A DNA stretch of 36,583 bases from a virus (taxonomy: Duplodnaviria > Heunggongvirae > Uroviricota > Caudoviricetes): the IMG/VR virus record IMGVR_UViG_2585427727_000016, one strand, 5' to 3'. Position numbers and translations under genes: made by a program. The notes under the pieces were generated by a model. That model worked only from the letters and a program-made list of their open reading frames with translations, was not told the DNA's origin and made no database searches. Each line of letters begins with the position of its first letter. Positions within the stretch are counted from its first letter, which is position 1. Below are positions 997 through 35,143 of the stretch, one piece after another.

Positions 997-1195
997 TACG
1001 TATCCTTATACCTGAAATCTTCGCAAGTATGCCTGGCCGCGAGATTATGGCACACTTGTCCGGTTAACTCTCGTCTCATACAGGTAACACAAACGTGAAA
1101 ATCCTTGTTGATGAAAAAGATGTTGATTTAACTTTTTGATATAAAAGGATTTGTATCGGCGCATGTCCACGCAGTGACCACATTTTCGAGTTATA

Positions 1196-1233
1196 GATAA
1201 CACAAAGCCCGTTTTCACGGGCTTTGTGTTATC
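1196..1233. terminator. perfect 16-bp-arm inverted repeat hairpin between the cargo operon and flk
   Basis: GATAACACAAAGCCCG-TTTTCA-CGGGCTTTGTGTTATC read directly; lies just downstream of the minus-strand ORF ending at 1246. Confidence 0.5.
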
Positions 1234-1245
1234 TGTGATTGTGGC

Positions 1246-2156
1246 TTAGCCGCATGATTTATACTGTTTCCAGTTACAGGCTTCTTGAAGCGGTTTTAGC
1301 GTGGTTGACAGGCCGTTTAAATTGAAAGTTGCACTTACAGGGCTTTCATTATAAGGGGTTATTTTTGCATACATTTTGTTTGAGTTGGCTAGTTTTCTGA
1401 TGAAGTTAATGTCATTGCCTTTATAAAAAACAGCCTTTGTATCTGTAGATACTAGCCAGTTTCGCTCAACTGCTTTCTGTTTATCAAGGCGATACAGCAT
1501 GCTGGTTTGTTCAAGGCCTAAATATACATCCCAATTAAGAAATACTTCGGTTTTCTTTTCTCGGCAAGCTATAAACAGAGTAGGGGTAACCGCTTCTCCA
1601 AATGGAGTTCTTATATAATCATCACTTTCTAACGATAAAATTACATTTTTCGAATCATCAATTGGCGATGTAGTAATGGATGTGTGCCATTTTCCTGTGT
1701 CTGTGGCTTTCTCTAATTTTGATTTAGATTGCGCAACTTTTTCCTGTGGAAATGGTTTATCGTAGCAGTTTACTCTAGTTTCTTTATCGTTTTCTGCTCG
1801 GCATTTAGATATCTCAGAAAGATTTGGTTGCTGAGCCTCTGTTGTTACTAGCTGTTTCGCTTTAGATTTTGAGCTTACAGGCGGAGTAAATGTTGGAGAA
1901 AAAAACGGTCATAACAAGATAAACGTCTGTCATCATCTTTCTCATCAGGGCATTGATCTCTGCTTTCGAATTTTTCAGCAACTGTCGTTCGAGTCGGTTG
2001 TATTGACTTATCATAACAAGAAAGTCTTTCTTTATTATTTTCTATTGCTCGGCACTGGAGTGATGACTTAAAGTTATTATGCTCAGTTGCTGCGTGAGCA
2101 GGTAGCACACTAATTGATATAAATGATGCACCTATAGAAATAATCATATTTTTCAT
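1246..2156 (-). pseudogene. secreted repeat protein with recurring C-x(n)-RLxCYD motifs, split by a 1-nt frameshift in a homopolymer
   Basis: ORF 1875..2156 has a signal peptide (MKNMIISIGASFISISVLPAHA) and stops just after a run of 7 T on the coding strand (1899..1905); the -1 frame is open with no start codon from 1908 down to 1246 and carries the same motif (RVNCYDK vs RLSCYDK/RLSCYDR). Confidence 0.5.
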
Positions 2157-2160
2157 TTTG

Positions 2161-2493
2161 TTATCCCTTTGGTTTAGTAAGAAATACTAAATTTCCGATA
2201 ATGATATTGCAAATAACCCATAAGCCTCCAATAGCAATTAAACCTAAGCCCGTACCAATAACTGTACCGGCTTTTTCGGCATCGGATGTGGCGTTGTTTA
2301 TTATTTCACCCACCTCTCTTAGCCCAACACAAATCGTGTAGATTATAAAAATATTAAATAATATGAAAAAATACTTAATGAGTTCTCCAAAAAATGAACG
2401 TTTAAGTTTTTTCAGTTGTTTGCCACAAGCAGGGCAAGACAATACTGAATCGATCACCTCTTTCTGGCATTCAGGACATTTGATTAATGCCAT
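2161..2493 (-). CDS. zinc-ribbon membrane protein (N-terminal CxxC...CxxC, two predicted TM helices)
   Basis: MALIKCPECQKEVIDSVLSCPACGK followed by two hydrophobic stretches; start taken at the internal Met; AT-rich; immediately upstream of the frameshifted gene on the same strand. Confidence 0.55.
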   Translation of the reverse strand: MALIKCPECQKEVIDSVLSCPACGKQLKKLKRSFFGELIKYFFILFNIFIIYTICVGLREVGEIINNATSDAEKAGTVIGTGLGLIAIGGLWVICNIIIGNLVFLTKPKG

Positions 2494-3001
2494 ATAATCT
2501 GCCTCCTTTGGCTCTCTACTAGCTGACGTTTGTAACAAAACATTTTGATTTTATCAGACTTTTTATTGATATGTGTCAATTGATTAGCTGGTATAGAGTG
2601 AGACAGGATGCCTTATCGACCTTACTCTGGCAACTGATTGACGGGGGATTGCTCCCCCGTCGCGGTTTCCTTACTGCTTACACTGTAAGAACGCCGCAAA
2701 CTCCGCTCCCCAGAAACTCATCCGTATTTCACACAGCGAACCGTGCAGCATCCAGATGATGAGGATTGCCGTCACGCAGAACGTGATGGCCGTAAGCGAT
2801 TTTTGCGACATAGCACTTGCTCCTTTTCCGGAGAGGCGCTAACCTTTCACTTGTCAAGGTAATGCGGTTAGGGCCTCGGTTAAACAGATATGTTTTCCGG
2901 GGCCTTTCCACATCCGGCCTTCGGGTATTCCCTCCGACCATCAGCCGAAAGGCACCCGCACGTAATCTATCGCTTTTTTGTTACTCCGGCAATTCTGCCT
3001 G

Positions 3002-3262
3002 TTAATTCTGAGGTAAAGGCAAACTCATCTGATTGTTTCCCCTGTGTGAAGCTGGCAGCTCATGCCACGGGATACCTTCTGATGAGTGAACGCCGGAGGC
3101 GTGTTTCGATGTGAATTTATGGAAAGCTTCCAGTGTTGAGAAGCATACGCCGCATTCCAGATTGTTACACTGGTAATACTTTTGCCGCACGGTGTTTGAA
3201 TCATTTTCCGGACGACTGGTGCGGATACGGGCAGATGCGCCACAAAGCGGACAACGGAACAT
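3002..3262 (-). CDS. ogr: late gene transcriptional activator Ogr/Delta (zinc finger)
   Basis: MFRCPLCGASARIRTSR...YYQCNNLECG: CxxC...CxxxxC pattern and N-terminal similarity to P2 Ogr; sits next to D. Confidence 0.85.
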   Translation of the reverse strand: MFRCPLCGASARIRTSRPENDSNTVRQKYYQCNNLECGVCFSTLEAFHKFTSKHASGVHSSEGIPWHELPASHRGNNQMSLPLPQN

Positions 3263-3304
3263 AGCTACCTCCCTTAACGTGGTGCTGCCGCTATTCTAAG
3301 TTGC

Positions 3305-4414
3305 TCACTCTGTTTCCGCTATCCATTCCGGGATTTTTGCCTCAAGCTCAAGCTGCGTGGTAAAGCCGCTGTTATCAATGGTGTGCCCGGCTTTTGCAAT
3401 AATCCAGTCCTGATTATCAATCTCGCTTTTAAATCCTGTTACCGTGCCATGCATTTCGGGGTAGAGTTCTGCACGTCCACGCGCCAGCGTGATGGAGAAT
3501 GATGCGGCTCCGCGTTGTAGTTGCTGCCACTTTGCCGCCGCTGCGCGTCTTGCTGCCTGCTCGTTCTGATAAGTCTTGCGTAACACAAACACATTGCCTT
3601 CCGCGCCTTCCATATAATCACCTTCACGGCTGCTGCTTTTCTCCTTTTTGGGTTTTGGCGGTTTACGGCGTTTCACGCTGACTTTTTTCTTTTTCCCGTA
3701 ATTAAGATCAAGCCAGTAGGCGCGTACCCCCGTATACGCCTCGCGGTCAGCAATGCGGAACTGATGGCGATCGCCGCTGCTGCGTGTAATGGCGAACGAG
3801 GGCAACGGCTGGCCCTGTGCGTTCACGCCACCACCTGGCATGATGAATAACAGATTGCCGCTTTTTACCGTGGTGATTGCACCCAGCATTTCCGCCATGC
3901 GCGTAAGGAAGGACATGTCGCTTTCTTCGGTCTGGTCGGCGTGGTCGATTTCGATATCCATCAGCATTTCGCTGATTTGCGGTTTCAGACCATACCGATG
4001 AGCGATGGCGGATACCACACGCTCAACGGTCACATCATGCCAGGACACCTCACGTTTAACGTTAAATTCATCCCGAAAATCTGCGCTTCTGGCTGAAACA
4101 GTCAGCCTGTCCGGCGGTCCTTCGTGAGCGATTTCATCAACAATGTAAGTGCCTTTTTCTGTCAGCGGTTCTCCCTTCCAGCCAATGAGAACCGTCAGGC
4201 GCGCGCCCCGTGGCGGTAGCTGCAACTGACCATCCGCATCATCCAGCGTGATGGTGAGCTGGTCCGCCTCAAATCCCCGGTTGTCGGTCAGTGACAGGCT
4301 CATCAGGCGCTCTGCCACGCCTGACAGCGTTTTACCCTCCGCGAGAATATCAAAATCCGGCATTTTTACGGGGTCTGTGCCCTGACTGAGCAATTGCATG
4401 GTGGTGTCGGTCAT
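3305..4414 (-). CDS. D: tail protein D (late control gene D)
   Basis: about 370 aa from the internal Met with GGAGG RBS (ORF track extends to 4546); basic KKKKVSVKRRKPPKPKK stretch; position next to ogr. Confidence 0.8.
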   Translation of the reverse strand: MTDTTMQLLSQGTDPVKMPDFDILAEGKTLSGVAERLMSLSLTDNRGFEADQLTITLDDADGQLQLPPRGARLTVLIGWKGEPLTEKGTYIVDEIAHEGPPDRLTVSARSADFRDEFNVKREVSWHDVTVERVVSAIAHRYGLKPQISEMLMDIEIDHADQTEESDMSFLTRMAEMLGAITTVKSGNLLFIMPGGGVNAQGQPLPSFAITRSSGDRHQFRIADREAYTGVRAYWLDLNYGKKKKVSVKRRKPPKPKKEKSSSREGDYMEGAEGNVFVLRKTYQNEQAARRAAAAKWQQLQRGAASFSITLARGRAELYPEMHGTVTGFKSEIDNQDWIIAKAGHTIDNSGFTTQLELEAKIPEWIAETE

Positions 4415-4571
4415 CTGCTCCCTCCCTGTGCGGCATGGTCGCATGTGCGTGCGGAGGGGGTTACTGCTTTTTGTTGTCGCCGTGGCGAGAGAACGGCGCA
4501 GGGGTGAGATTACGCGCGTGGTGGGTGATGATTGTTGCCGAATCATTTAACGGATACAAGGGGCTGAAGCT
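4415..4571. promoter_or_regulatory. divergent intergenic region between D and FI (presumed late promoters)
   Basis: 157-bp gap between divergent start codons; no promoter elements verified. Confidence 0.35.
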
Positions 4572-5756
4572 ATGAGTGAAACTCGTTTTCATGGTGCCCG
4601 TGTTACGGAAAATACCGACCTGGTAACAGCGATTAACGATGTTGATTCCAGCGTTATCGGTATCGTGGCAACGGCGGATGATGCGGACGCGAAGCTGTTC
4701 CCGCTGAACAAGCCCACACTGCTGACCCGCGTCAATGACGTGCTGGGAAAATGCGGGACAACGGGGACGCTTTATCGTGCGCTTAAGGCCATCGCAGACC
4801 AGGTGAGTACAAAGGTGATCGTCGTTCGCGTGGCTGAACACAAAGAAGAAGACGGAAAAACGCAGGATCAACTGGTTATCGGTGGTTCTGAATCTGACGG
4901 CAGCTATACGGGGATGTATGCGCTGCTTGTTGCAGAGCAGGATGAAAGCATCGGATACCGTCCGCGTATTCTGGCCGCGCCGGAGCTGGACACGGAGGCG
5001 GTAACAAAATCCCTGTGCGTGATTGCGGGTAAACTGCGCGCGTTTGTGTATGCCTCATGTCACGGCTGTAACACGATGGCTGAGGCGATTACCTACCGCC
5101 AGAAATTCAACGAACGTGAGGTGATGCTCTTATGGCCGGACTTCATCGCCTACAACCCGAAAAGTGGCAAAAACGAAACGTTCCCCGCGCCTGCCTATGC
5201 GTGCGGCCTTCGTGCGTACATTGACCATGAGCAGGGCTGGCACAAATCGCTGTCCAACGTTCCGGTTAAAAATGTGCTGGGGATGTCCAGGCATGTGTTC
5301 TGGTCGTTGCAGGCCGAAGACAGTGATGCCAACAGCCTCAACAACAAAGAAATCACGACCATTATTCGTCGCAACGGGTTCCGCTTCTGGGGCAACCGCA
5401 CACCGGAAACGAACGCCTACATCTTTGAGGTGTATACCCGAACCGCACAGGTGCTGGCTGATTCAATTGCGGAAGCGCAGTTTGAAACCATCGATAGTCC
5501 ACTGACGCCTGCGAACGTGAAGGATGTTATCAGTGCCATCAGGGCAAAACTGGATTCACTGGTTACTGCCGGGAAACTGATTGGGGCGTCGTGCTGGTAT
5601 GACGTGGTGGATAACAGCACCACGGATTTACGTCAGGGGCGTGTGCGTATTCGCTACAAATATACGCCCGTTCCTCCGCTGGAAGACATGGAGCTTTACC
5701 AGTCGTTTACTGATGAATTCTTTGGTCCCGCATTTGCGGTGCTGGGAGGTGCCTGA
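4572..5756 (+). CDS. FI: contractile tail sheath protein FI
   Basis: 394 aa; size and sequence character of P2 FI; followed by overlapping FII start. Confidence 0.9.
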   Translation: MSETRFHGARVTENTDLVTAINDVDSSVIGIVATADDADAKLFPLNKPTLLTRVNDVLGKCGTTGTLYRALKAIADQVSTKVIVVRVAEHKEEDGKTQDQLVIGGSESDGSYTGMYALLVAEQDESIGYRPRILAAPELDTEAVTKSLCVIAGKLRAFVYASCHGCNTMAEAITYRQKFNEREVMLLWPDFIAYNPKSGKNETFPAPAYACGLRAYIDHEQGWHKSLSNVPVKNVLGMSRHVFWSLQAEDSDANSLNNKEITTIIRRNGFRFWGNRTPETNAYIFEVYTRTAQVLADSIAEAQFETIDSPLTPANVKDVISAIRAKLDSLVTAGKLIGASCWYDVVDNSTTDLRQGRVRIRYKYTPVPPLEDMELYQSFTDEFFGPAFAVLGGA

Positions 5757-6268
5757 TGGCTGTACCAAAACATCTTCGCTTTTTTACGCTGTTTGTGGAT
5801 GGTGAAAACGAAGTGGGTAAGGTGACGTCCGTCACCCTGCCTAAACTGACGCGCAAAACCGACAGCTACCGGGGTGGTGGCATGATGGGTGCGGTAAGTA
5901 TTGATCTCGGTCTGGACGACTCCGCGCTTGATGCGAGCTTTGTCATGGGGGGCGCAGTTCGTGAGCTGTTCCTTAAGTATGGCGGCACGATTGACGGCAC
6001 GCTACTGCGTTTTGCGGGTGAATACTACACCGATGCAGAAAGCGACCTGTATGAAGTCGAAATGCGCGGACGCGTGACGGAAATTGATATGGGGGAAGCC
6101 AAACAGGGCGAAGCCACATCACACACTTACGCCATTAAAAACACCTACTACAAGCTGAGTGTTAACGATCGTCCGTTGTGGGAGATTGACCTGCTGAACT
6201 TCATTTACCGGAAGGACGGCAAGGACATTGTGCCCGATCGCATCCGTTCCGCGCTTGGGCTTGGCTGA
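5756..6268 (+). CDS. FII: tail tube protein FII
   Basis: 170 aa; ATG overlaps FI stop; P2 FII-like. Confidence 0.9.
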   Translation: MAVPKHLRFFTLFVDGENEVGKVTSVTLPKLTRKTDSYRGGGMMGAVSIDLGLDDSALDASFVMGGAVRELFLKYGGTIDGTLLRFAGEYYTDAESDLYEVEMRGRVTEIDMGEAKQGEATSHTYAIKNTYYKLSVNDRPLWEIDLLNFIYRKDGKDIVPDRIRSALGLG

Positions 6269-6322
6269 TAAGTAATATGCAGGCGGCGCAGTGCGTCGCC
6301 TCTGACTGAAAGGAGTTTCCTG

Positions 6323-6688
6323 ATGAAAGAGACGAAAAACATCGATACCGAAAACACGGTAGTTGCTGACACTGTGAAAGAAACCAGTGAGCGTGGCGTA
6401 AAACTTACCCAACCAATTGAGCGAGGCGGCGAAAAAATCACGTATGTGGAGATCACCGGGGCTATTGAGCAGGCTGGATCTCTGCGAGATTTGTCGCTGT
6501 CTGATGTGCTGAATCTGAAAGCGGAATCCATGTTTACGCTGCTGTCACGAGTGACATCACCGCGACTGGATGAAGTGACGATCAAAAAAATGGCATCCCG
6601 TGACTTTATTCAGTTATGTGTGGTTGCCGTAAATTTTTTGAGCGGTGCGGACTCTGGCGGGAAGAACGAACAGGCGACGGAAGCCTGA
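6323..6688 (+). CDS. E: tail assembly chaperone E
   Basis: 121-aa ORF with RBS, directly upstream of tape measure gene; contains the slippery site. Confidence 0.8.
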   Translation: MKETKNIDTENTVVADTVKETSERGVKLTQPIERGGEKITYVEITGAIEQAGSLRDLSLSDVLNLKAESMFTLLSRVTSPRLDEVTIKKMASRDFIQLCVVAVNFLSGADSGGKNEQATEA

Positions 6689-6852
6689 TCACGGTTGTGT
6701 GCTTTGAGCACATAGAAGACTTTGTGGCAGATATTGCCGTTATTTTTAACTGGTCGCCCGCCGAAATCTTCATGATGACGCCCGGCGAAGTGGTTAGCTG
6801 GCGTGAGCGGGCGGCACTTCGCAGCGGGAATGCAGACAATGAAGACTCTTGA
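6323..6852 (+). CDS. E': tail assembly chaperone E+E' made by -1 programmed frameshift at 6634..6640
   Basis: heptamer T_TTT_TTG in the E frame (AAT TTT TTG); -1 frame open from there to a stop at 6850..6852 (FFERCGLWREER...NADNEDS). Confidence 0.65.
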
Positions 6853-9646
6853 TATCCGGGTCGCTTTCAGCGCCGTTGACAGGCTGACCCAGCCTGCCGA
6901 AAACGCCCGCCGCCTGATGGGGCAGTTTGGTGACTCCATCCAGCGAACGCAGGGGGCGATCAAAAATCTCGAGCGTCAGGCGCGTTCATTTGAGCGCGCC
7001 CGCGACGCTGTCAGTAAAGCGGATGCGGGTATCGTGAAAGCACGACGCCAGCTTAACGCCCTTAATCAGTTACAACGCACGGGTACAGTGCTCAGCGAAA
7101 AACAACAAAAGCTGATGCAGCAGTTAAGCACCCGGCTTGAACGCCTGAATGAATCGCGCACGCGGGAAATTCAGAAAATGCGGGAGCTTGGCGGAGAGCT
7201 GAAACGCCACGGCATTTCCCTGACAGGCAGCGATAACACCATCCAGCAGGCCATCAGACGCACCGAACAGTACAACAATCAGCTTGAACGCGAACGGCAG
7301 GCGCTTGCGCGTGTAACGCGGGCGCGTGAGCGGTATTCGCGCGCGCAGGAAACAGCGGGAAAACTGAAAACAGGTGGTGCACTGGCAATTGGTGCGGCAG
7401 CGGCGGGCGGCTATGCTGCCGGGCGTTTTTTGCAGCCTGCGATCGGGTTCGGCAAAGAGATGTCCCGCGTTCAGGCACTGACGCGAATCGACCAGAACAG
7501 CCCGCAGTTTAAGGCGCTGCGTGAGCAGGCGTTAAAACTTGGCTCTGAAACGCAGTTCACCGCAGGCGATGCCGCCAGTGGACAGGCATTTCTTGCAATG
7601 GCTGGCTTCACTCCGCAGGCCATTCAGGCTGCGCTTCCCGGCGTGCTGAGCATGGCAACGGCTGGCGGTATGGATCTCGGCGAGACGGCAGATATTGGCT
7701 CAAATATCCTGACGCAGTTCGGCCTTTCTGCTGACCAGATGGACCGGGTCGGTGACACACTCACCGCAGCGTTTACCCGTACCAACACTGACCTTCGCGC
7801 ACTGGGCGAAACCATGAAATATGCAGGTCCGGTGGCGGGTAAGCTGGGAATATCGCTGGAGCAGACCGCAGCGATGGCGGGCGTGCTGGCGAATATGGGC
7901 ATCAGAGGGAGTGATGCCGGGACGGCAATGCGTGCCAGCCTGGCTCGTCTGGCATCACCGCCAAAGGCGGCGGCAGAAGCTCTGAAAGAGCTGGGCGTGT
8001 CCGTTTCGGATGCCGGGGGCAAAATGCGCCCGATGGAAGATCTGCTGGCTGACCTTTATAAAGCTACCCGCAAATACGGGGAAGTTGACCGGGTATCCTT
8101 CTTTAAGGATATCGCCGGGGAAGAGGCTTTCACATCGTTTATGGCACTCGTTGATGCGGCGGGGGACGGGTCCTTACCCAAACTGAGAAAAGAACTTGAG
8201 GGCGCACGCGGTGAGGCTGAACGCACGGCAAAGGTTATGGCCGACAACCTTGATGGCGACCTGAAAAATCTCGACAGCGCATGGGAAGGTCTTCGTATTC
8301 GCATCAGTGATCTGGTTGACGGTCCGCTGCGTTCTGTCACGCAGTGGCTAACACGGGTGGTCTCAAAGGTGACGGTACTGGCGCAGGCCCATCCTGTACT
8401 GACGCGCCAGCTACTGATTGCAGGCGGTGCGCTGCTGGCAGTGACTGCAACCGTAGGCTCGTTGTCGCTTGCTCTTGGTGTGCTTGCTGGCCCGCTGGCA
8501 AAACTGCGTCTTGGTTTTTCCCTCCTGACCGGATCAATGAATGCTGTCAGGCTCCTGCCAGCACTATGGGGAATGGTGACGGGTTCCGTTTCTTTGCTGG
8601 GAGGTGCTATCGGGGCGCTGTTCAGTCCGGTTGGTCTTATCGTGGCTGCGCTTGCCGGAGCTGCCGTTCTTATCTGGAAATACTGGGATCCCATCAGGGC
8701 ATTTTTTGCCGGGGTGTTCAGCGGGATTATGGAAAGGCTGACCCCGTTGCGCGAAACTTTTGAACGGTTTGGTCCTGTTTTTGACGCAATCGGAAGCGGG
8801 ATCAGCCAGGTGTTTAACTGGTTTAAATCGCTACTGTCACCGATGGAGTCCAGCAAGGAAACGCTGGATAAATGTACCAGTGCTGGCGAGATATTCGGTA
8901 ACGTTCTTGGCGGTGCGTTACAACTTGTTCTGACACCTGCAAAAATGCTACTGGATACGCTGGCGTGGATACTTGAAAAACTTGGCGTCCTTCCGGATGA
9001 AGCGGAAAGGGCGCGCAAGAAAATCGAAGACGCACAGCGTGCGGCCATTCTTCAGGACAAGGTAGCCTTACTTCAGGGGGACCTGGCGAAAATCAATCCG
9101 CCGAAGCCTGTGGAAAATGGCAATGGCACCGGAGGTGATAAACCCAAAGACAACAAACCGCTCACAGACAGCAATACCGGGACGCTACGCAGACTCAGCA
9201 AAATTGCTGATAACACAGGTAAGCTGGTTGATGAGACGAAAAAACGCATTGGCCCCGGCGATATTGTCTTTAAGAACCTGCCCCGCGCACTTGCTGTTCG
9301 TGGGGAGTGGCAGGAGCGGAAGATTACACAGGTCAGTAAGCCTGCCCCCGCAATTAATATCACCCCCGTGGTTCCGGCTCCGCTGCCTCCGGCGCTGGTC
9401 CCTGTTGTTGCGGCCAGCTCTCACCCGGTGGCGGAGGCCATACGATCGCCAGTGGCATCAGTTCCTGCAACTTCCCGTAACCGGGAGCCTGTTGCCTCCG
9501 GATTTGGTGGTGAAATTCATGTTCATCTGCATAACGTTGTTACGCAGAATCCCCGCGAACTGGCGAAACTGGTCGGTGAAATGGTCAGGGCAGAAATGGA
9601 ACGGCGTGCCCATGCCGGGCGTGGCAGTTTTTACGATAAAGATTGA
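6830..9646 (+). CDS. T: tail tape measure protein T
   Basis: about 940 aa; coiled-coil N-terminal region, Ala/Gly-rich hydrophobic central segment; start at 6830 or 6839 overlapping the E' stop. Confidence 0.9.
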   Translation: MQTMKTLDIRVAFSAVDRLTQPAENARRLMGQFGDSIQRTQGAIKNLERQARSFERARDAVSKADAGIVKARRQLNALNQLQRTGTVLSEKQQKLMQQLSTRLERLNESRTREIQKMRELGGELKRHGISLTGSDNTIQQAIRRTEQYNNQLERERQALARVTRARERYSRAQETAGKLKTGGALAIGAAAAGGYAAGRFLQPAIGFGKEMSRVQALTRIDQNSPQFKALREQALKLGSETQFTAGDAASGQAFLAMAGFTPQAIQAALPGVLSMATAGGMDLGETADIGSNILTQFGLSADQMDRVGDTLTAAFTRTNTDLRALGETMKYAGPVAGKLGISLEQTAAMAGVLANMGIRGSDAGTAMRASLARLASPPKAAAEALKELGVSVSDAGGKMRPMEDLLADLYKATRKYGEVDRVSFFKDIAGEEAFTSFMALVDAAGDGSLPKLRKELEGARGEAERTAKVMADNLDGDLKNLDSAWEGLRIRISDLVDGPLRSVTQWLTRVVSKVTVLAQAHPVLTRQLLIAGGALLAVTATVGSLSLALGVLAGPLAKLRLGFSLLTGSMNAVRLLPALWGMVTGSVSLLGGAIGALFSPVGLIVAALAGAAVLIWKYWDPIRAFFAGVFSGIMERLTPLRETFERFGPVFDAIGSGISQVFNWFKSLLSPMESSKETLDKCTSAGEIFGNVLGGALQLVLTPAKMLLDTLAWILEKLGVLPDEAERARKKIEDAQRAAILQDKVALLQGDLAKINPPKPVENGNGTGGDKPKDNKPLTDSNTGTLRRLSKIADNTGKLVDETKKRIGPGDIVFKNLPRALAVRGEWQERKITQVSKPAPAINITPVVPAPLPPALVPVVAASSHPVAEAIRSPVASVPATSRNREPVASGFGGEIHVHLHNVVTQNPRELAKLVGEMVRAEMERRAHAGRGSFYDKD

Positions 9647-9652
9647 GGAGTC

Positions 9653-10147
9653 ATGGCCATGATGATGATCTACGGCATGTTTGTTTTTGAGCTGCGCACG
9701 CTGCCGCATCAGCAGTTACAGCAAAACAAAAGCTGGCGGCATGTGAAAAATGAACGCGTTAACCGTTCAGCAAGCTGGCAGTATATCGGTGCAGGTGATG
9801 ATCGCATCGTTCTTTCTGGTGTGCTTTATCCTGAAATTACAGGTGGCGAAGTGTCGCTGTCGCTGCTGACCACGCAGGCGTATACAGGACGCCCCTGGCC
9901 TCTTATTGATGGCGTCGGGCAGATTTACGGCATGTATGTCCTGACCGAAACGAATACGACCCGTTCCGAGTTTGATCGCTACGGTAAGGCGAAAAAGATA
10001 GAATTTTCACTGACCCTTGAACGCTGTGATGAGGATTTGCGGGAGCGCCTGCAATCCTCATCGTTCAGCGATATTCTGTCCGGCTTCAAAGATAAAGTGA
10101 CATCATCCCTTAACAGCGCGGCCAGTTCAGTTAAAGGGCTGTTCTGA
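9653..10147 (+). CDS. U: tail protein U
   Basis: 164 aa immediately after T with GAGGAG RBS; P2 U-like. Confidence 0.85.
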   Translation: MAMMMIYGMFVFELRTLPHQQLQQNKSWRHVKNERVNRSASWQYIGAGDDRIVLSGVLYPEITGGEVSLSLLTTQAYTGRPWPLIDGVGQIYGMYVLTETNTTRSEFDRYGKAKKIEFSLTLERCDEDLRERLQSSSFSDILSGFKDKVTSSLNSAASSVKGLF

Positions 10148-10317
10148 TTTAATGCTGGCCACTCATACCCTCATACCTGGTAATAAGTGGCCAGTCTTAA
10201 CACTCACCATTTGATTGCACCTGTGTTAACGATTTGTTACTGGGTATCAGACACGCTGGATAGCCAGTAGAAACATACCATTAAAATTATTACAATAATT
10301 GGTCACATGATTATCTT

Positions 10318-10881
10318 ATGCTGAATAATAGAGATATGAATATTAATGAACTTAAAGACTGTATTCACTATGAAGTAATCGGTAGCGAGCGTCCTTTCTC
10401 CTGGCGAAAGGCAATTGTTCGCGCAATAAAACATAGAAGACTTCGTTATTTATTTTGGTGGCGCATAGCCAAATACCTTTTTGATAAAGGCGGATACTGT
10501 CGGAAGATTGCGGGGAAAATAGAACGTTTCATTCTTGATAAATATAATGTAACAGTCCCTTTAACTGTAAATATAGGGAAAGGTTTTGATATTTCTTATC
10601 TCAACAGTGTTGTTATCGGTCACAAAGTAACAATCGGTGAAAATTGTTCAATAAAACCGGGGGTAACTATTGGGCTACGTGGTGATTTTAATGATATGGA
10701 TATTGTTATAGGACATAATGTGACCATTGGTTGTAATGCCACCATTCTTGGTGGCAAAGTGCGTATAGGAAACAATGTCACAATAGGTGCTCATGCATTG
10801 GTATTGCATGATATTCCTGATGATTCAACATTCATCACTAAATTTCAGTCTGAAGTTATCTGCTCGTCCTCCCGCACATAA
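10318..10881 (+). CDS. hexapeptide-repeat (left-handed beta-helix) acyl/acetyltransferase; cargo at the Z/fun position
   Basis: repeated [LIV]-G-x-x-x-x hexapeptides ([21 protein letters not shown]...[34 protein letters not shown]); strongly AT-rich compared with flanking phage genes; start codon uncertain. Confidence 0.7.
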
Positions 10882-11462
10882 CCCTGATTCATCAGCTCTG
10901 GCCATACGATATCCGGAGCTGTACTGGTGTCAATTCTACTCACTAATACTCTGTATTTTCTCCAGGAATCCAGTTGTGAATTTTCCTCGTTTGTTGCTAT
11001 TTCAAGATTAACTGCATCCTGCAGGATTGCGATGTTATCTGTTGCCTCCTGGATCAACCTTGCCTTTTTCTCTTCCGCTTCCCGTATCCGAAACAGTTTT
11101 TCTGCTTCCTCATCCTTCACCCAGGATACGCCGTCCCACTTCTGATATTCCCCTGCTGGCGACAACCAGGTGACATTCTCTGGTAGCGGTCCGGGTTCAG
11201 AAATAAACAACGCGTCCCCCGATGCCACGTCATAGACCGTTTTACCACGATGGTCTTCAACAATATTCCACGATTCATTTTCACTGTTAAAAACTGCCAC
11301 AAAGCCAGCAGGAATTTCCGGTGGGGCGATATCTGTAGAATTAGCTGGCAGCCCTGTATGAGGTGGAATATATGCGTCACCTTCACCAATAAACTCATTA
11401 GTTCCGGCCAGCAGGTTATAAATTTTTACAGTGCGTGATTGTTCACTCATTCTGAATGCCAT
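10845..11462 (-). CDS. G: tail fibre assembly protein G
   Basis: 205 aa; start overlaps H stop (TAATG); P2 G-like. Confidence 0.85.
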
Positions 11463-13462
11463 TATGCAAGCCTCACAATATAATTAAATGCGATGTTTTT
11501 AACGGTGTTTTCCGCGTTACCAGCAGCGTTAACGGTGATGGTATGTCCATGTGAACCAATCGCAACAGAGTGCGTATGAGCGCCAATACCAACAGTGTGT
11601 GCATGTGCCCCAGCACTTGTAGCGGTGCCTGATACTGAGTGGGTATGTGCGCCAGAAGAAGGCACAGTTCCATTCCCTACCACCGTGCCACTTGATGCAC
11701 CATCCAGCCAGTCGAAATTCATACCGCCACTGTTTGGTCTCCTTAATGGCACGGTATGAGTATGTGCGCCAGCACTATTTGCAGTACCAGATACATTGTG
11801 GGTATGTGCACCTGTGTTATTCGTTGATTTAGTACCGTAATCAAACGAAGATGTGGTTTTCGTACCCAAATCCGTATTGGATGCGCTGGCGCTGTGGGTG
11901 TGCGATTTAATGCCATCCTGTTCCAGAGACAATACGTCCCGACCACTGGCGGGTTTGCCCTTGATTGTCCAGCCACGCATATCGGGGAGTACACCAGAGG
12001 GATAAGCTGCTGCAAGCAGGGGATAGGTTGTTTTATCAAAAGTCTGCCCCTGCATAACGGCATAGCCTGTAGGCACTGAATCAGAAGGCCACGGAATCGC
12101 CGCACCTACAGGAAATGAATCCTGCGGCGTCCATGCTGTCCAGTCACCCGTTGAGTACTGGCTGCGGGTATAGCTTCTGGATGTGTTATACACATAGTAA
12201 ATCTGTGTTATCCCGGCATTTTTAAGCACAACCAGTGTACCGGCAAGATTCTCTGGGTATTTCAGCGCTGCACTTGTATAGGCATTCAGGGGTTGATGGT
12301 ACAGCCCCGGCGTTTTGTAATTATCCAGATTCTGGTTTGCACCAATATTAATACTCTGACCGTTAAAAATATCCTGTGATGTAACATTGACATCATTGGT
12401 CAGTGGTTTGCCATTAACCTTACGTCCAGAGGGCACACGCCCGTTTGCATTGTCATTAGCAGCTTTAACCGCTTTCGGGGTCGCGGCAAGCGTTTCAGAC
12501 GTGCTGTTGGTCGCGTTGCTAAGCTGAACTATCCCTTTCTGTGCTGTCGTTGCATCCTGTGCGGTGTATTTCCCGTTAGCCAGCTCATACGCGGCCTTAA
12601 CGGCTTTTGGCGTTGCCGCCAGTGACTCGGAAGTGCTGTTAGTCGCACTGCTGAGCTGGATAAGACCTTTTCGCGCTGTGGTAGCGTCCTGTGCGGTATA
12701 TTTCCCGTTAGCAAGGTCATATGCTGCCTTTACCGCCTTTGGTGTTGCCGCCAGCGTTTCAGAATCGCTGTTGGTGGCGCTACTGAGCTGGACAAGGCCT
12801 TTTCGCGTTGTGCTGGCATCCTGCGCAGTATATTTCCCGTTAGCAAGGTCATACGCGGCCTTTACTGCTTTCGGCGTTGCAGCTTGTGTTTCAGACACGC
12901 TGTTAGTGGCGCTACTGAGTTGAACAAAGCCTTTTGCGGTCAGCGAGGCATCCGGGTGACGTCGTGACTGTTCATGCTCTTTCAGTTTGTTATCCACGTA
13001 ATCCACTGTGGCCATCACCATGGTGTTATCCACGGTAAGCGCCACAGTGGCAGTGCTGGATACGGTCAGAATGGTGCGAAATGTTTGTGCACGACCGGAC
13101 CCTTCGGCAACGGCTGGCTTGTAACTTTCGGCAGTATTGCCCACCGCGATTAAATCGCCGTGCTCATCAAACACACCAATTTCCCGGATCCAGAATCCGC
13201 CCGTTTCTGGAGGAATAACCAGCTCCGCAATAATGCGATTCTGATGTGTTGCGTCCAGGATGACGCGATTAACAGTATGTCGCCACACCTCATGCACCAG
13301 ACGGGTCTGCTTACTGTCTGGTGTGGGCAACGTGCCGCCACCGTCGCCCACGGCCATATGAGTCAGGCGGACAGGCTTACCATCTGGCGCGGCTGCCTGA
13401 GCTAATTTTTTTGCACCCGTATCGGTGATAACGGTTTTAAATTTTCGTGTTGTGGTACTCAT
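11462..13462 (-). CDS. H: tail fibre protein H
   Basis: 666 aa; conserved N-terminal region, four internal 44-aa tandem repeats, His-x-His-rich C-terminal tip. Confidence 0.9.
12430..12955. repeat. four tandem coding repeats of about 132 bp inside gene H
   Basis: DNA period visible by eye (GTATTTCCCGTTAGC...); protein repeat [38 protein letters not shown] x4. Confidence 0.8.
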
Positions 13463-20884: not shown

Positions 20885-21721
20885 TCAGAAGTCAGCCAGC
20901 TGGTCGGAGGCTGCGCCCGTTGCGGTGAACCGGTTCTGCGGATCGCCGTCCTGCGTGCGCAGTTTTTCCTTCAGTGCTGTCAGCTCTGTGGTCAGTGACG
21001 TGATTTTCTGGCGGTCCTGCTGATGGCGGGTTTCCAGCACATTAAAACGGTCGATAATGTCGGCCTGTGACGTTGCGACGCCTTCCACCGCTTCCTGAAT
21101 ACGGGAAAAACTGGCGTCATCCGCTTTGCGGCCACGACCAATAATCCCCATTACGCGGTTAAACCACTGGGTGCCTTCTTCCTGGCGTTGTTCTGCCATT
21201 TCGATGATTTCAGACTCGATGGCTTCGGAGATAAGCGGTGCTTCACCCTGGATACTGTTGAACGTCATCACCGCCTGACGTTGCTGTGCCGTGAATTTCA
21301 GGCGCTCAGTGCCCAGGCTTGCCGGGGTGTCGGTCATCGCCAGCCCGACCAGATAGGCGCGCCCGTTAACGGAGAACTGCGGGTGCAGTTCGATACTGGA
21401 ATAGATTTTCTTGCCGTCAGCGACAAGCTGCTTCATGCGCTCGGTCGGTTCGATTTCTGCATACAGCGCAGTACGTCCGGCCAGCGGGCCTTCCGTAATA
21501 TCTTCCGTACTCAGTGCGGTGACATCGCCCATTGCGGAAAATTCGCTTGACGGGCATGGCGAGAGATAGTGCTCAACGTTCACGCGGGCAGCGTAAACAT
21601 CCGGGTTGAAGTTCTCGGCGGCTTCACGCAGATGTACCGGGCTGATTTCGCGGCCATCAACAGTTGATCCGGAGACAGCCACGCGAAACTTTTTGCGGGA
21701 TGTCTTTTTTTCATTAGCCAT
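20885..21721 (-). CDS. O: capsid scaffolding protein O
   Basis: YLVGLAMTDTPASLGTE motif as in P2 O; start taken at the Met with GAGGGG RBS (ORF track extends to 21754). Confidence 0.85.
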   Translation of the reverse strand: MANEKKTSRKKFRVAVSGSTVDGREISPVHLREAAENFNPDVYAARVNVEHYLSPCPSSEFSAMGDVTALSTEDITEGPLAGRTALYAEIEPTERMKQLVADGKKIYSSIELHPQFSVNGRAYLVGLAMTDTPASLGTERLKFTAQQRQAVMTFNSIQGEAPLISEAIESEIIEMAEQRQEEGTQWFNRVMGIIGRGRKADDASFSRIQEAVEGVATSQADIIDRFNVLETRHQQDRQKITSLTTELTALKEKLRTQDGDPQNRFTATGAASDQLADF

Positions 21722-21875
21722 AGTTTTTGCCCCTCTGACTGGTTCTTCAGTCATGATGGCAAAGCGTAACAGGCTGATACAAAGGGCTTTTGTTGTAAGA
21801 AAACGGCCAGAACAGGGGGTTAAGGAGAACGGTTTCGCGCGCGGGTAATCTTCCTGTAATTACTCAGGGGGAGCA

Positions 21876-31261: not shown

Positions 31262-31578
31262 GTGGCCCCTTGTGTAGTAAGTTGCGAAAACTCACCATCC
31301 AGAGCTGCGAAACTGTGGGTGGCGAGACGTACGAGGTTCGCAGTACCGGCTACACAAGAACCCGGCCCGACCGAAGTCGGCCCCGTACGCCCCGCCATAA
31401 TTCTGACGCGAAAAAAACGTGGCAATACAGTACGCACAAAAAAACCGCTGGCGCGGTTGTGCGCTTGTGTAGTCAGCAGGCTGCGAAACCCGGCACCCGT
31501 TTTATGAGGTGCAGCGGAAATGTAACCTGACTGATTGCGGCATGGCAAGCGGTTTTTTTGTGTGTGCATAGTGGTTAC
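31262..31578. repeat. non-coding region with iteron-like direct and inverted repeats (CTTGTGTAG / CTGCGAAAC units)
   Basis: CTTGTGTAGTAAGTTGCGAAAAC, GCTGCGAAACTG, GTTCGCAGTACCGGCTACACAAG (inverted), GCTTGTGTAGTCAGCAGGCTGCGAAACC; ends with a hairpin plus T7 on the plus strand. Confidence 0.5.
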
Positions 31579-34758: not shown

Positions 34759-35046
34759 TTAAAGCCCCAGCCACAACAACCATGCATCGCGGCGTTCTTT
34801 CGGCTGATCAAAAAACGCTTTGCGCATACCTGCGTTAAATGCTGGCAGATATACCCAGTTTTCTGATGCTCGCGTCTTCACTGAACCTGGTTTTACAAAG
34901 TCAATCGTTGGTAACTTTGCAGCGTCAATCATGGTTCTGACGGTTGATTCTTTGCGACCAATCATCTTGGCAAATAGTTGATATGGCACCGCTTCAAGTG
35001 GATATGGTGCTACCTGAATGAACCCCTCAAGCTCTGATTCGCTCAT
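34759..35046 (-). CDS. cox: Cox (excisionase / early regulator)
   Basis: 95 aa; VPYQLFAKMIG...WVYLPAFNAG...WLLWLGL resembles P2 Cox; divergent from C. Confidence 0.8.
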   Translation of the reverse strand: MSESELEGFIQVAPYPLEAVPYQLFAKMIGRKESTVRTMIDAAKLPTIDFVKPGSVKTRASENWVYLPAFNAGMRKAFFDQPKERRDAWLLWLGL

Positions 35047-35143
35047 TGTGGTAATCTCCTTAATTCGTCCAAATGGCCCAAAATGGCTTATATAGGCTTA
35101 TTTTGGCTATTTGAATGTTTTGTATCACATGTAACCCAATAGC
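35047..35143. promoter_or_regulatory. immunity switch region between cox and C (Pe/Pc promoters and operator repeats)
   Basis: 97-bp divergent intergenic region with direct repeats CCAAATGGC / CCAAAATGGC / TTATTTTGGCT. Confidence 0.55.

Follow-up and report, generated by a model that had tools for sequence, protein, structure and literature searches.

In phage P2, the F operon (FI-FII-E-E'-T-U-D, late promoter PF) ends with D, which is co-oriented with the genes before it, whereas in the P2-like prophage analysed here the genes FI to U are flipped and D is divergent from FI. Does this order represent a rearrangement or an assembly error of a single genome, or is it the regular plan of a phage lineage, and does it leave D and the late activator gene ogr cut off from their promoters? 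The window, by which we mean the whole stretch of DNA that was analysed, is 36,583 nucleotides long (IMG/VR record IMGVR_UViG_2585427727_000016). A sequence-only reading of it had proposed an in-place inversion of about 5.7 kb that parts D and ogr from the late promoter of FI.

We ran 33 P2 proteins against the window by tblastn and compared the strand of each match with its P2 strand. Matches were recovered for 27 of the 33 proteins at 25-72% identity, and the tblastn search gave no match in the window for the other six (Y, K, lysA, lysB, B and cargo genes). The strand was the reverse of that in P2 for Q, P, O, N, M, L, X, R, S, V, W, J, I, H and G, as well as for D, ogr, int, C, cox and A. 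Since nearly all homologues are strand-reversed, the prophage sits reversed in the window, with Q and P on the plus strand, O, N, M, L, X, R, S, V, W, J, I, H and G on the minus strand, and int, C, cox and A at the right end. The P2 strand (plus) was retained by FI (match span 4590-5723), FII (5756-6262), E (6389-6643), T (6848-9007) and U (9659-10039). The resulting order, ogr and D on minus, FI, FII, E/E', T and U on plus, an acetyltransferase gene on plus, then G and H on minus, is exactly the P2 order with FI-U flipped in place. The reversal is a matter of gene strand, and chance is not involved. The PHROG and Pfam assignments concur (sheath, tube, E-type chaperone, tape measure, gpU, gpD with PF05954 and Ogr_Delta with PF04606), and with the tblastn matches they bear out the strands given in the sequence-only reading (FI-FII-E-E'-T-U on plus, D/ogr and H/G on minus, FI divergent from D). 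Its coordinates for the D start codon (4414), the FI ATG (4572) and the U stop (10147) were also correct.

To the left of the block lies ogr (3002-3262, minus strand), a gene for an Ogr-type late activator of 86 aa with a CX2C...CX4C zinc finger (Ogr_Delta PF04606, E 5e-14; 42% identity to P2 Ogr). The tail spike/hub gene D (3305-4414, minus strand, 369 aa; PHROG 52 tail protein, Pfam Phage_GPD) keeps the canonical orientation of the prophage. Its longest ORF extends to 4546, and the ATG at 4414, preceded by a Shine-Dalgarno (SD) sequence, agrees with the start of P88 gp51. A divergent spacer of 157 bp (4415-4571) between D and FI forms the left junction of the inverted block. The block itself, all on the plus strand, begins with the tail sheath gene FI (4572-5756, ATG at 4572; PHROG 23) and the tail tube gene FII (5756-6268; PHROG 55). 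The library label of PHROG 55 is 'head closure', and it is attached to P2 FII likewise. E follows as an ORF at 6323-6688 with the ATG read at 6324 (PHROG 103), and the E+E' product (6323-6852) would arise by -1 frameshifting at the slippery TTTTTTG at 6636-6642, the equivalent of which is annotated in the P2 record. The tape measure gene T (6839-9646; PHROG 28) encodes 935 aa from the ATG at 6839, a length equal to that of P88 gp45, and its longest ORF begins at a GTG at 6803. The final gene of the block is the tail protein gene U (9653-10147; Pfam Phage_P2_GpU, E 5.5e-39).

The right junction of the block spans 10148-10317, and the similarity to P88 stops at 10152. Just past U there is a stem-loop with a weak T tail (10149-10200), which is a possible terminator. 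The next gene (10318-10881, plus strand) is cargo and encodes a hexapeptide-repeat acetyltransferase (Pfam Hexapep; RefSeq product name 'serine acetyltransferase'). Beyond it, the tail fibre assembly gene G (10845-11462, minus strand) and the tail fibre gene H (11462-13462, minus strand), identified by tblastn and by PHROG 105 and 295 for the G/H pair, converge on the U end of the block.

The likeness to the P2 F operon extends to the gene set, the internal order and the E/E' slippery site, although the P2 proteins of the compared F-operon region are just 32-48% identical to those of the window, and the window has no Z/fun gene. At the DNA level a dot plot against P2 was uninformative because just 8% aligns, and protein-level mapping was used in its place. 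The comparison with P88 (Xuanwuvirus P88, Peduoviridae), on the other hand, was clear. In P88, H and G are followed by U-T-E'-E-FII-FI on the opposite strand, after which comes D, and this is also the layout of the window. Using blastn, 76% of the P88 genome aligned to the window at 96.3% identity with all blocks collinear, and one 7.5-kb alignment (P88 27595-35109, window 10152-2630) covers the whole stretch U...FI/D...ogr. A megablast search of phage records showed P88-like phages 95-97% identical to the window with alignments unbroken over the D/FI junction; across ogr-D-FI...U this identity range holds for P88, Citrobacter phiSM, PhiR44_2, 500465-2 and P884B11. The D/FI junction is also contiguous in the independently sequenced P88, PhiR44_2, 500465-2, Shae_phiSM, P884B11 and Chuche.

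By ICTV convention, a genus takes in phages whose genome-wide nucleotide similarity to the type phage is at least about 70%. The similarity of the window to the P88 genome (76% x 96.3%, about 73%) is borderline in this respect, and the window may hold an incomplete prophage. Both Xuanwuvirus traits that we tested were found, namely this borderline genome similarity and the P88 gene order with inverted FI-U. The prophage of the window is thus P88-like, of the Xuanwuvirus type, and an ordinary member of this group. P88 differs in its fibre tips and in some early-region genes, and at the G/U junction it carries an invertible tail-fibre segment with a DNA invertase, where the window has the acetyltransferase gene. 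P88 can be induced and phiSM is active as a temperate phage (PMC6456863), so the flipped order is compatible with a functional phage.

The same arrangement is found outside this genus. The Salmonella phages SEN4 and SEN5 (Senquatrovirus) have FI-U inverted as in the window, and in SEN5 G converges directly on U; they differ in belonging to another genus, in having a D only about 63% identical and in a G/U junction without cargo. The Pseudomonas phage phiCTX, used as outgroup, has the collinear order, unlike the window. When we tested the traits of Peduoviridae, the family of P2-like temperate myoviruses, the P2-type set of structural and regulatory genes was present in the window, but the canonical P2 order with FI...U-D co-oriented was absent, FI-U being opposite to D and H/G. 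The co-oriented FI...U-D is a feature of P2 itself and not of Peduoviridae, as the classified members P88 and SEN5 lack it.

We then asked how widespread the flipped order is. One genome per bacterial species was scanned with a gpD alignment (window, P88 and P2), and in the best 80 of the 307 loci FI, FII, E, T, U, D, ogr, V, W, J and I were located by tblastn. Among these 80 loci and the named phages, FI was divergent from D in all 50 scorable loci in which D was at least 61% identical to the D of the window. The 50 consist of the window, P88, SEN5 and 47 fetched loci (46 counted from other genomes), two of them copies in one Symbiopectobacterium genome, and they cover more than 20 genera of Enterobacterales (among them Salmonella, Trabulsiella, Symbiopectobacterium, Edwardsiella, Serratia, Erwinia, Enterobacter, Pantoea, Kosakonia, Citrobacter, Pectobacterium, Izhakiella, Brenneria, Klebsiella, Xenorhabdus, Providencia, Rouxiella, Dryocola, Photorhabdus, Hafnia, Morganella and Yersinia). 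In the inverted loci FI-U lies on the strand opposite to D, and FI is 120-200 bp from the D start. One more close Klebsiella locus (L029) has the flipped layout with a truncated FI match and stands outside the 50. The collinear order FI...U-D was seen in 24 loci with a more P2-like D (47-54% identity to the window D), P2 included. Within E. coli, the 1.2-kb D/FI junction was contiguous in 1109 of 5426 complete genomes (about a fifth), being 100% identical to the window in E. coli O6:H16 M9682-C1, and the complete U-acetyltransferase-G junction was present in 113 genomes.

The flipped order is therefore the normal genome plan of a broad enterobacterial clade of P2 relatives that includes viable phages. 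Relative to P2, and in an evolutionary sense, the proposed in-place inversion of FI-U stands, but not as a local event, given that P88, SEN5 and the 1109 E. coli genomes share the order. The reading as a rearrangement of this prophage gives way to a lineage-typical order, which was found in every scorable locus with a close D.

The second part of the question concerns late control of FI and D. Late promoters of P2 are Ogr-dependent and share the consensus TGT-N12-ACA (PMC3931495). Exact matches to TGT-N12-ACA in the window were not informative, with seven found against 9.1 expected by chance and none in late intergenic regions. Dyads with one mismatch were found by comparing the D/FI spacer with the O/P spacer and with relatives. 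The D/FI spacer contains one such Ogr-type activator dyad, TGTCGCCGTGGCGAGAGA, at 4475-4492, with AGA in place of ACA as the single mismatch. It resembles the dyad of the O/P spacer of the window itself, and the layout of the two spacers is likewise similar. As in P2, the dyad lies about 95 nt upstream of FI, and its position, which is kept in relatives, agrees with that of P2 PF. In inverted and collinear relatives, P2 PF included, the dyad is about 97 nt upstream of the FI ATG. The distance from the dyad to FI is thus alike in both gene orders, and PF therefore appears to have moved with FI when the block inverted.

We looked for further traits of a late promoter, whose TGT-N12-ACA dyad has its centre some 55 nt upstream of the start of transcription. 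The spacing of hexamers was calibrated on the transcription starts annotated in the P2 record, where one activator site is annotated for the divergent pP and pO and the hexamers at offset 35-40 from it lie 7 nt upstream of the annotated starts of pO (3127) and pP (3016). In the window, -10-like hexamers are predicted at offset 35-40 on both sides of the dyad. On the FI side this is GATGAT (4527-4532, plus strand), which would place the start of PF at about 4539. On the D side it is GACCAT (4435-4440, minus strand), a putative promoter 'PD' with its start at about 4428. The elements found correspond to those of P2 late promoters, with a -10-like element at the P2 spacing, no good -35 and a phage-encoded activator of the Ogr/Delta type.

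We anchored on the dyad 24 non-redundant spacers of the inverted clade (less than 80% identical to each other) and the spacers of 19 collinear relatives. In the inverted clade nAnnnT occurred at offset 35-40 in 22 of 24 spacers on the FI side and in 20 of 24 on the D side, and this conservation is partly ancestry, as the compared spacers are kin, though flanking positions vary. On the D side four further spacers had nAnnnT at offset 36, and other offsets reached four at most. Among the collinear relatives the motif was at offset 35-40 in 16 of 19 on the FI side and in 2 of 19 on the other side. We infer from this pattern that the 157-bp spacer is a bidirectional Ogr-dependent late promoter for FI and D. 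The arrangement is like that of P2 pP/pO, with one TGT-N12-ACA-type dyad and -10-like hexamers 35-40 nt from each end, but the D/FI pair serves different genes, is found solely in the inverted clade, and its activity is predicted.

With such a promoter D would not be left without late control, and it was probably not stranded from it by the inversion. Formally, D and ogr are indeed separated from the FI late promoter, as had been proposed; the dyad, however, lies in the D/FI spacer and a mirrored -10-like element faces D. On balance we lean towards the view that, after the inversion, the Ogr site of PF was co-opted for a leftward D promoter and that the -10-like element became fixed at the mirror position throughout the clade. 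Alternatively, D may not be served by a divergent Ogr-dependent promoter at all, and may depend on an unrelated constitutive or early promoter or on antisense read-through from the V operon. The hexamer GACCAT is indeed weak as a -10 element, and D would have a very short leader in the window (about 14 nt). Read-through would nevertheless mean 5.7 kb of antisense transcription over a convergent operon, and a generic sigma-70 scan of the spacer revealed neither a -35/-10 pair nor a promoter-like site facing D. Together with the mirrored hexamer in 20 of 24 diverged spacers against 2 of 19 collinear relatives, this makes a different kind of D promoter unlikely, although it deserves to be kept in mind. 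In the combined scan for sigma-70 promoters and terminators, neither the spacer nor the region after U yielded a decisive signal.

As in P2, ogr lies downstream of D. The 42-bp spacer between the two contains a -10-like hexamer TAGAAT (3293-3298, minus strand), 31 nt upstream of the ogr ATG, and a promoter dedicated to ogr is annotated at the corresponding position in the P2 record. TAGAAT is the probable own promoter of ogr.

Regarding the origin of the flipped order, we built neighbour-joining (NJ) trees of D, which lies outside the block, and of FI, which lies inside it. In each of them, one branch parts all inverted from all collinear loci, the trees being unrooted, without bootstrap, drawn from the best 80 of the 307 loci and provided with phiCTX as the one outgroup. 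The argument for a single event rests on these trees and this outgroup. The most economical reading of the sequences is a single old inversion. The F operon genes FI-FII-E/E'-T-U with their late promoter would have inverted once in a common ancestor and would then have been inherited vertically. One breakpoint would lie on the upstream side of the PF activator site and the other between U and D, so that the Ogr-binding dyad of PF came to abut the start of D. From there a single symmetric Ogr site could drive PF rightward into FI and a second promoter leftward into D, as for pP/pO in P2, while ogr would retain its own promoter downstream of D. Taken jointly, a single ancestral inversion inherited by the P88-like lineage, a dyad predicted to serve divergent FI and D promoters and a probable separate promoter of ogr form an account that we regard as very probable.

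An FI-U cassette could also have been gained horizontally from another phage lineage and inserted in reverse. In favour of such a module replacement, mosaicism is known in P2-like genomes, Smp131 and other P2-like phages have rearranged tail operons in which late promoters are reassigned (PMC3931495), and the G/U junction is a variable cargo site, occupied by the invertible fibre segment and invertase in P88, by nothing in SEN5 and by the low-GC hexapeptide acetyltransferase gene in the window. A foreign cassette does not, however, fit the sequence divergence. Genes of the block (FI 45%, FII 42%, E 32%, T 33%, U 46%) and genes outside it (D 48%, V 47%, W 43%, N 42%, P 44%, Q 47%) show a comparable range of identity to P2 (tblastn). 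Genes inside and outside the block diverge jointly over the clade, the FI and D trees yield the same bipartition, and the position of the PF dyad relative to FI is unchanged from P2. We consider replacement of the module improbable.

The single inversion has left no trace of its mechanism in the junction repeats, the invertase genes or the U and D ends that we examined. In a search across 4250-10450 no inverted repeats linking the junctions rose above background, and the short inverted repeats looked for at the junctions were not meaningful; the one junction-to-junction pair (14 nt, 86%, 4565-4578 with 10160-10173) was no better than the rest of the 78 pairs. No breakpoint scar could be read at the C-terminal end of U or the N-terminal end of D, because both ends vary in both clades.

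The invertase gene of P88, which directly adjoins the U end of the block, could suggest that the block is a programmed reversible switch operated by a Hin/Gin/Cin-type enzyme. We give practically no credence to such a switch. The collinear orientation was never seen in the clade members examined, and the P88 invertase gene lies beside alternative tail-fibre genes on opposite strands, like that of a usual invertible fibre segment as judged from the map. The window has no invertase by PHROG and Pfam, the acetyltransferase gene being in that place, and of the traits of Gin/Cin/Hin/Pin-type invertible segments neither the crossover inverted repeats, sought at both junctions, nor an adjacent serine invertase gene was found. 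An invertase gene lay between the fibre genes and U in just 3 of the 39 scorable loci of the inverted clade, and the enzyme is thus unsupported as the cause of the inversion. Finally, a recent inversion or an assembly error peculiar to this genome, whose sole support is the contrast with the P2 gene order, has next to no chance of being right, as the junction is contiguous in the 1109 E. coli genomes, six phages, SEN5 and 46 loci of other genomes and its inverted repeats are not above background; misassembly and a strain-specific inversion are therefore excluded.

The flipped gene order itself is already known in the sense that it is present in deposited and annotated genomes. In the texts of the P88 paper, a 2026 survey of P2-like viruses and the papers on SEN4/5, dickeyocin and the C. 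rodentium prophages, we came across no remark on the inversion of FI-U, although their figures may draw it. The predicted bidirectional D/FI late promoter would be a modest addition to this picture.

The main practical lesson concerns annotation and triage: when FI-U is flipped in a P2-like prophage, this marks a large, viable clade comprising Xuanwuvirus, Senquatrovirus and many enterobacterial prophages, and it gives no ground for suspecting a rearrangement, a misassembly or prophage decay. If the D/FI spacer works as predicted, the principle of P2 pP/pO, in which one symmetric activator site serves two divergent late promoters, would extend to a pair made by rearrangement, and the spacer would be a natural bidirectional activator-dependent promoter born from such an event. 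The expression of gpD, the tail spike/hub, would then be uncoupled from the transcript of sheath, tube and tape measure.

In most D|FI spacers of the inverted clade, i.e. the P2 relatives in which FI to U is flipped (loci L005-L048 of the gpD scan), the -10-like hexamer that faces D has a GC-rich element of the CGCGCGCG type directly upstream of it. In the window, the element occupies positions 4441-4460 of the D|FI spacer and occurs again at 21833-21845, in the O|P spacer. This second copy is placed upstream of the P-facing hexamer, and the same position is taken by an element of this type in P2 (CGCGGGGCGCG).

Regarding the other gene flanking the O|P spacer, the longest ORF of the scaffold gene O spans 20885-21754 on the minus strand, which sets the spacer at 21755-21875 and places the start of O only 39 nt from the dyad (21794-21811). 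This start is probably too far upstream, as one 33 nt further in would match both the 278-aa O protein and the 154-bp O|P spacer annotated in P88, and would leave room for the -10-like hexamer CATCAT at offset 36 from the dyad.

The similarity to P88 ends at window position 2630, and positions 1-2630, which lack it, represent either host flank or another island. GC content drops to 36-42% around 1000-3000. Two short ORFs (1246-1500 and 1875-2156) match opposite ends of the T6SS VasI family and are possibly one split gene. They are accompanied by a zinc-ribbon ORF (2161-2538) and by a 331-aa ORF (1-996) with weak matches only. A hok-type toxin gene is predicted at approximately 2671-2811 on the minus strand, in the interval that separates ogr from the prophage end, by correspondence with the P88 gene at 34928-35068, which is annotated as 'MokW-like host killing, hok/gef family'. 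The early region has Rfam matches above the gathering score to the C4 antisense RNA (31315-31402, 83 bits) and the Hfq-binding sRNA isrK (31438-31512, 65 bits), both on the minus strand.

One locus of the gpD scan, L004 (NZ_JBQPOM010000071.1), is 98% identical to the enterobacterial prophage of the window, and its assembly carries the Gram-positive label Vagococcus sp. WN89Y. The assembly is probably contaminated or mislabelled.

The interval between U and G holds a hexapeptide-repeat acetyltransferase gene (10318-10881, plus strand; RefSeq product name 'serine acetyltransferase'), at a place that in P88 is taken up by an invertible fibre segment and an invertase. The gene has a low GC content of about 40% and is convergent with G, their 3′ ends overlapping by 37 nt. 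The complete U-acetyltransferase-G arrangement was found in 113 complete genomes of E. coli. The acetyltransferase gene is probably a cargo of lysogenic conversion.
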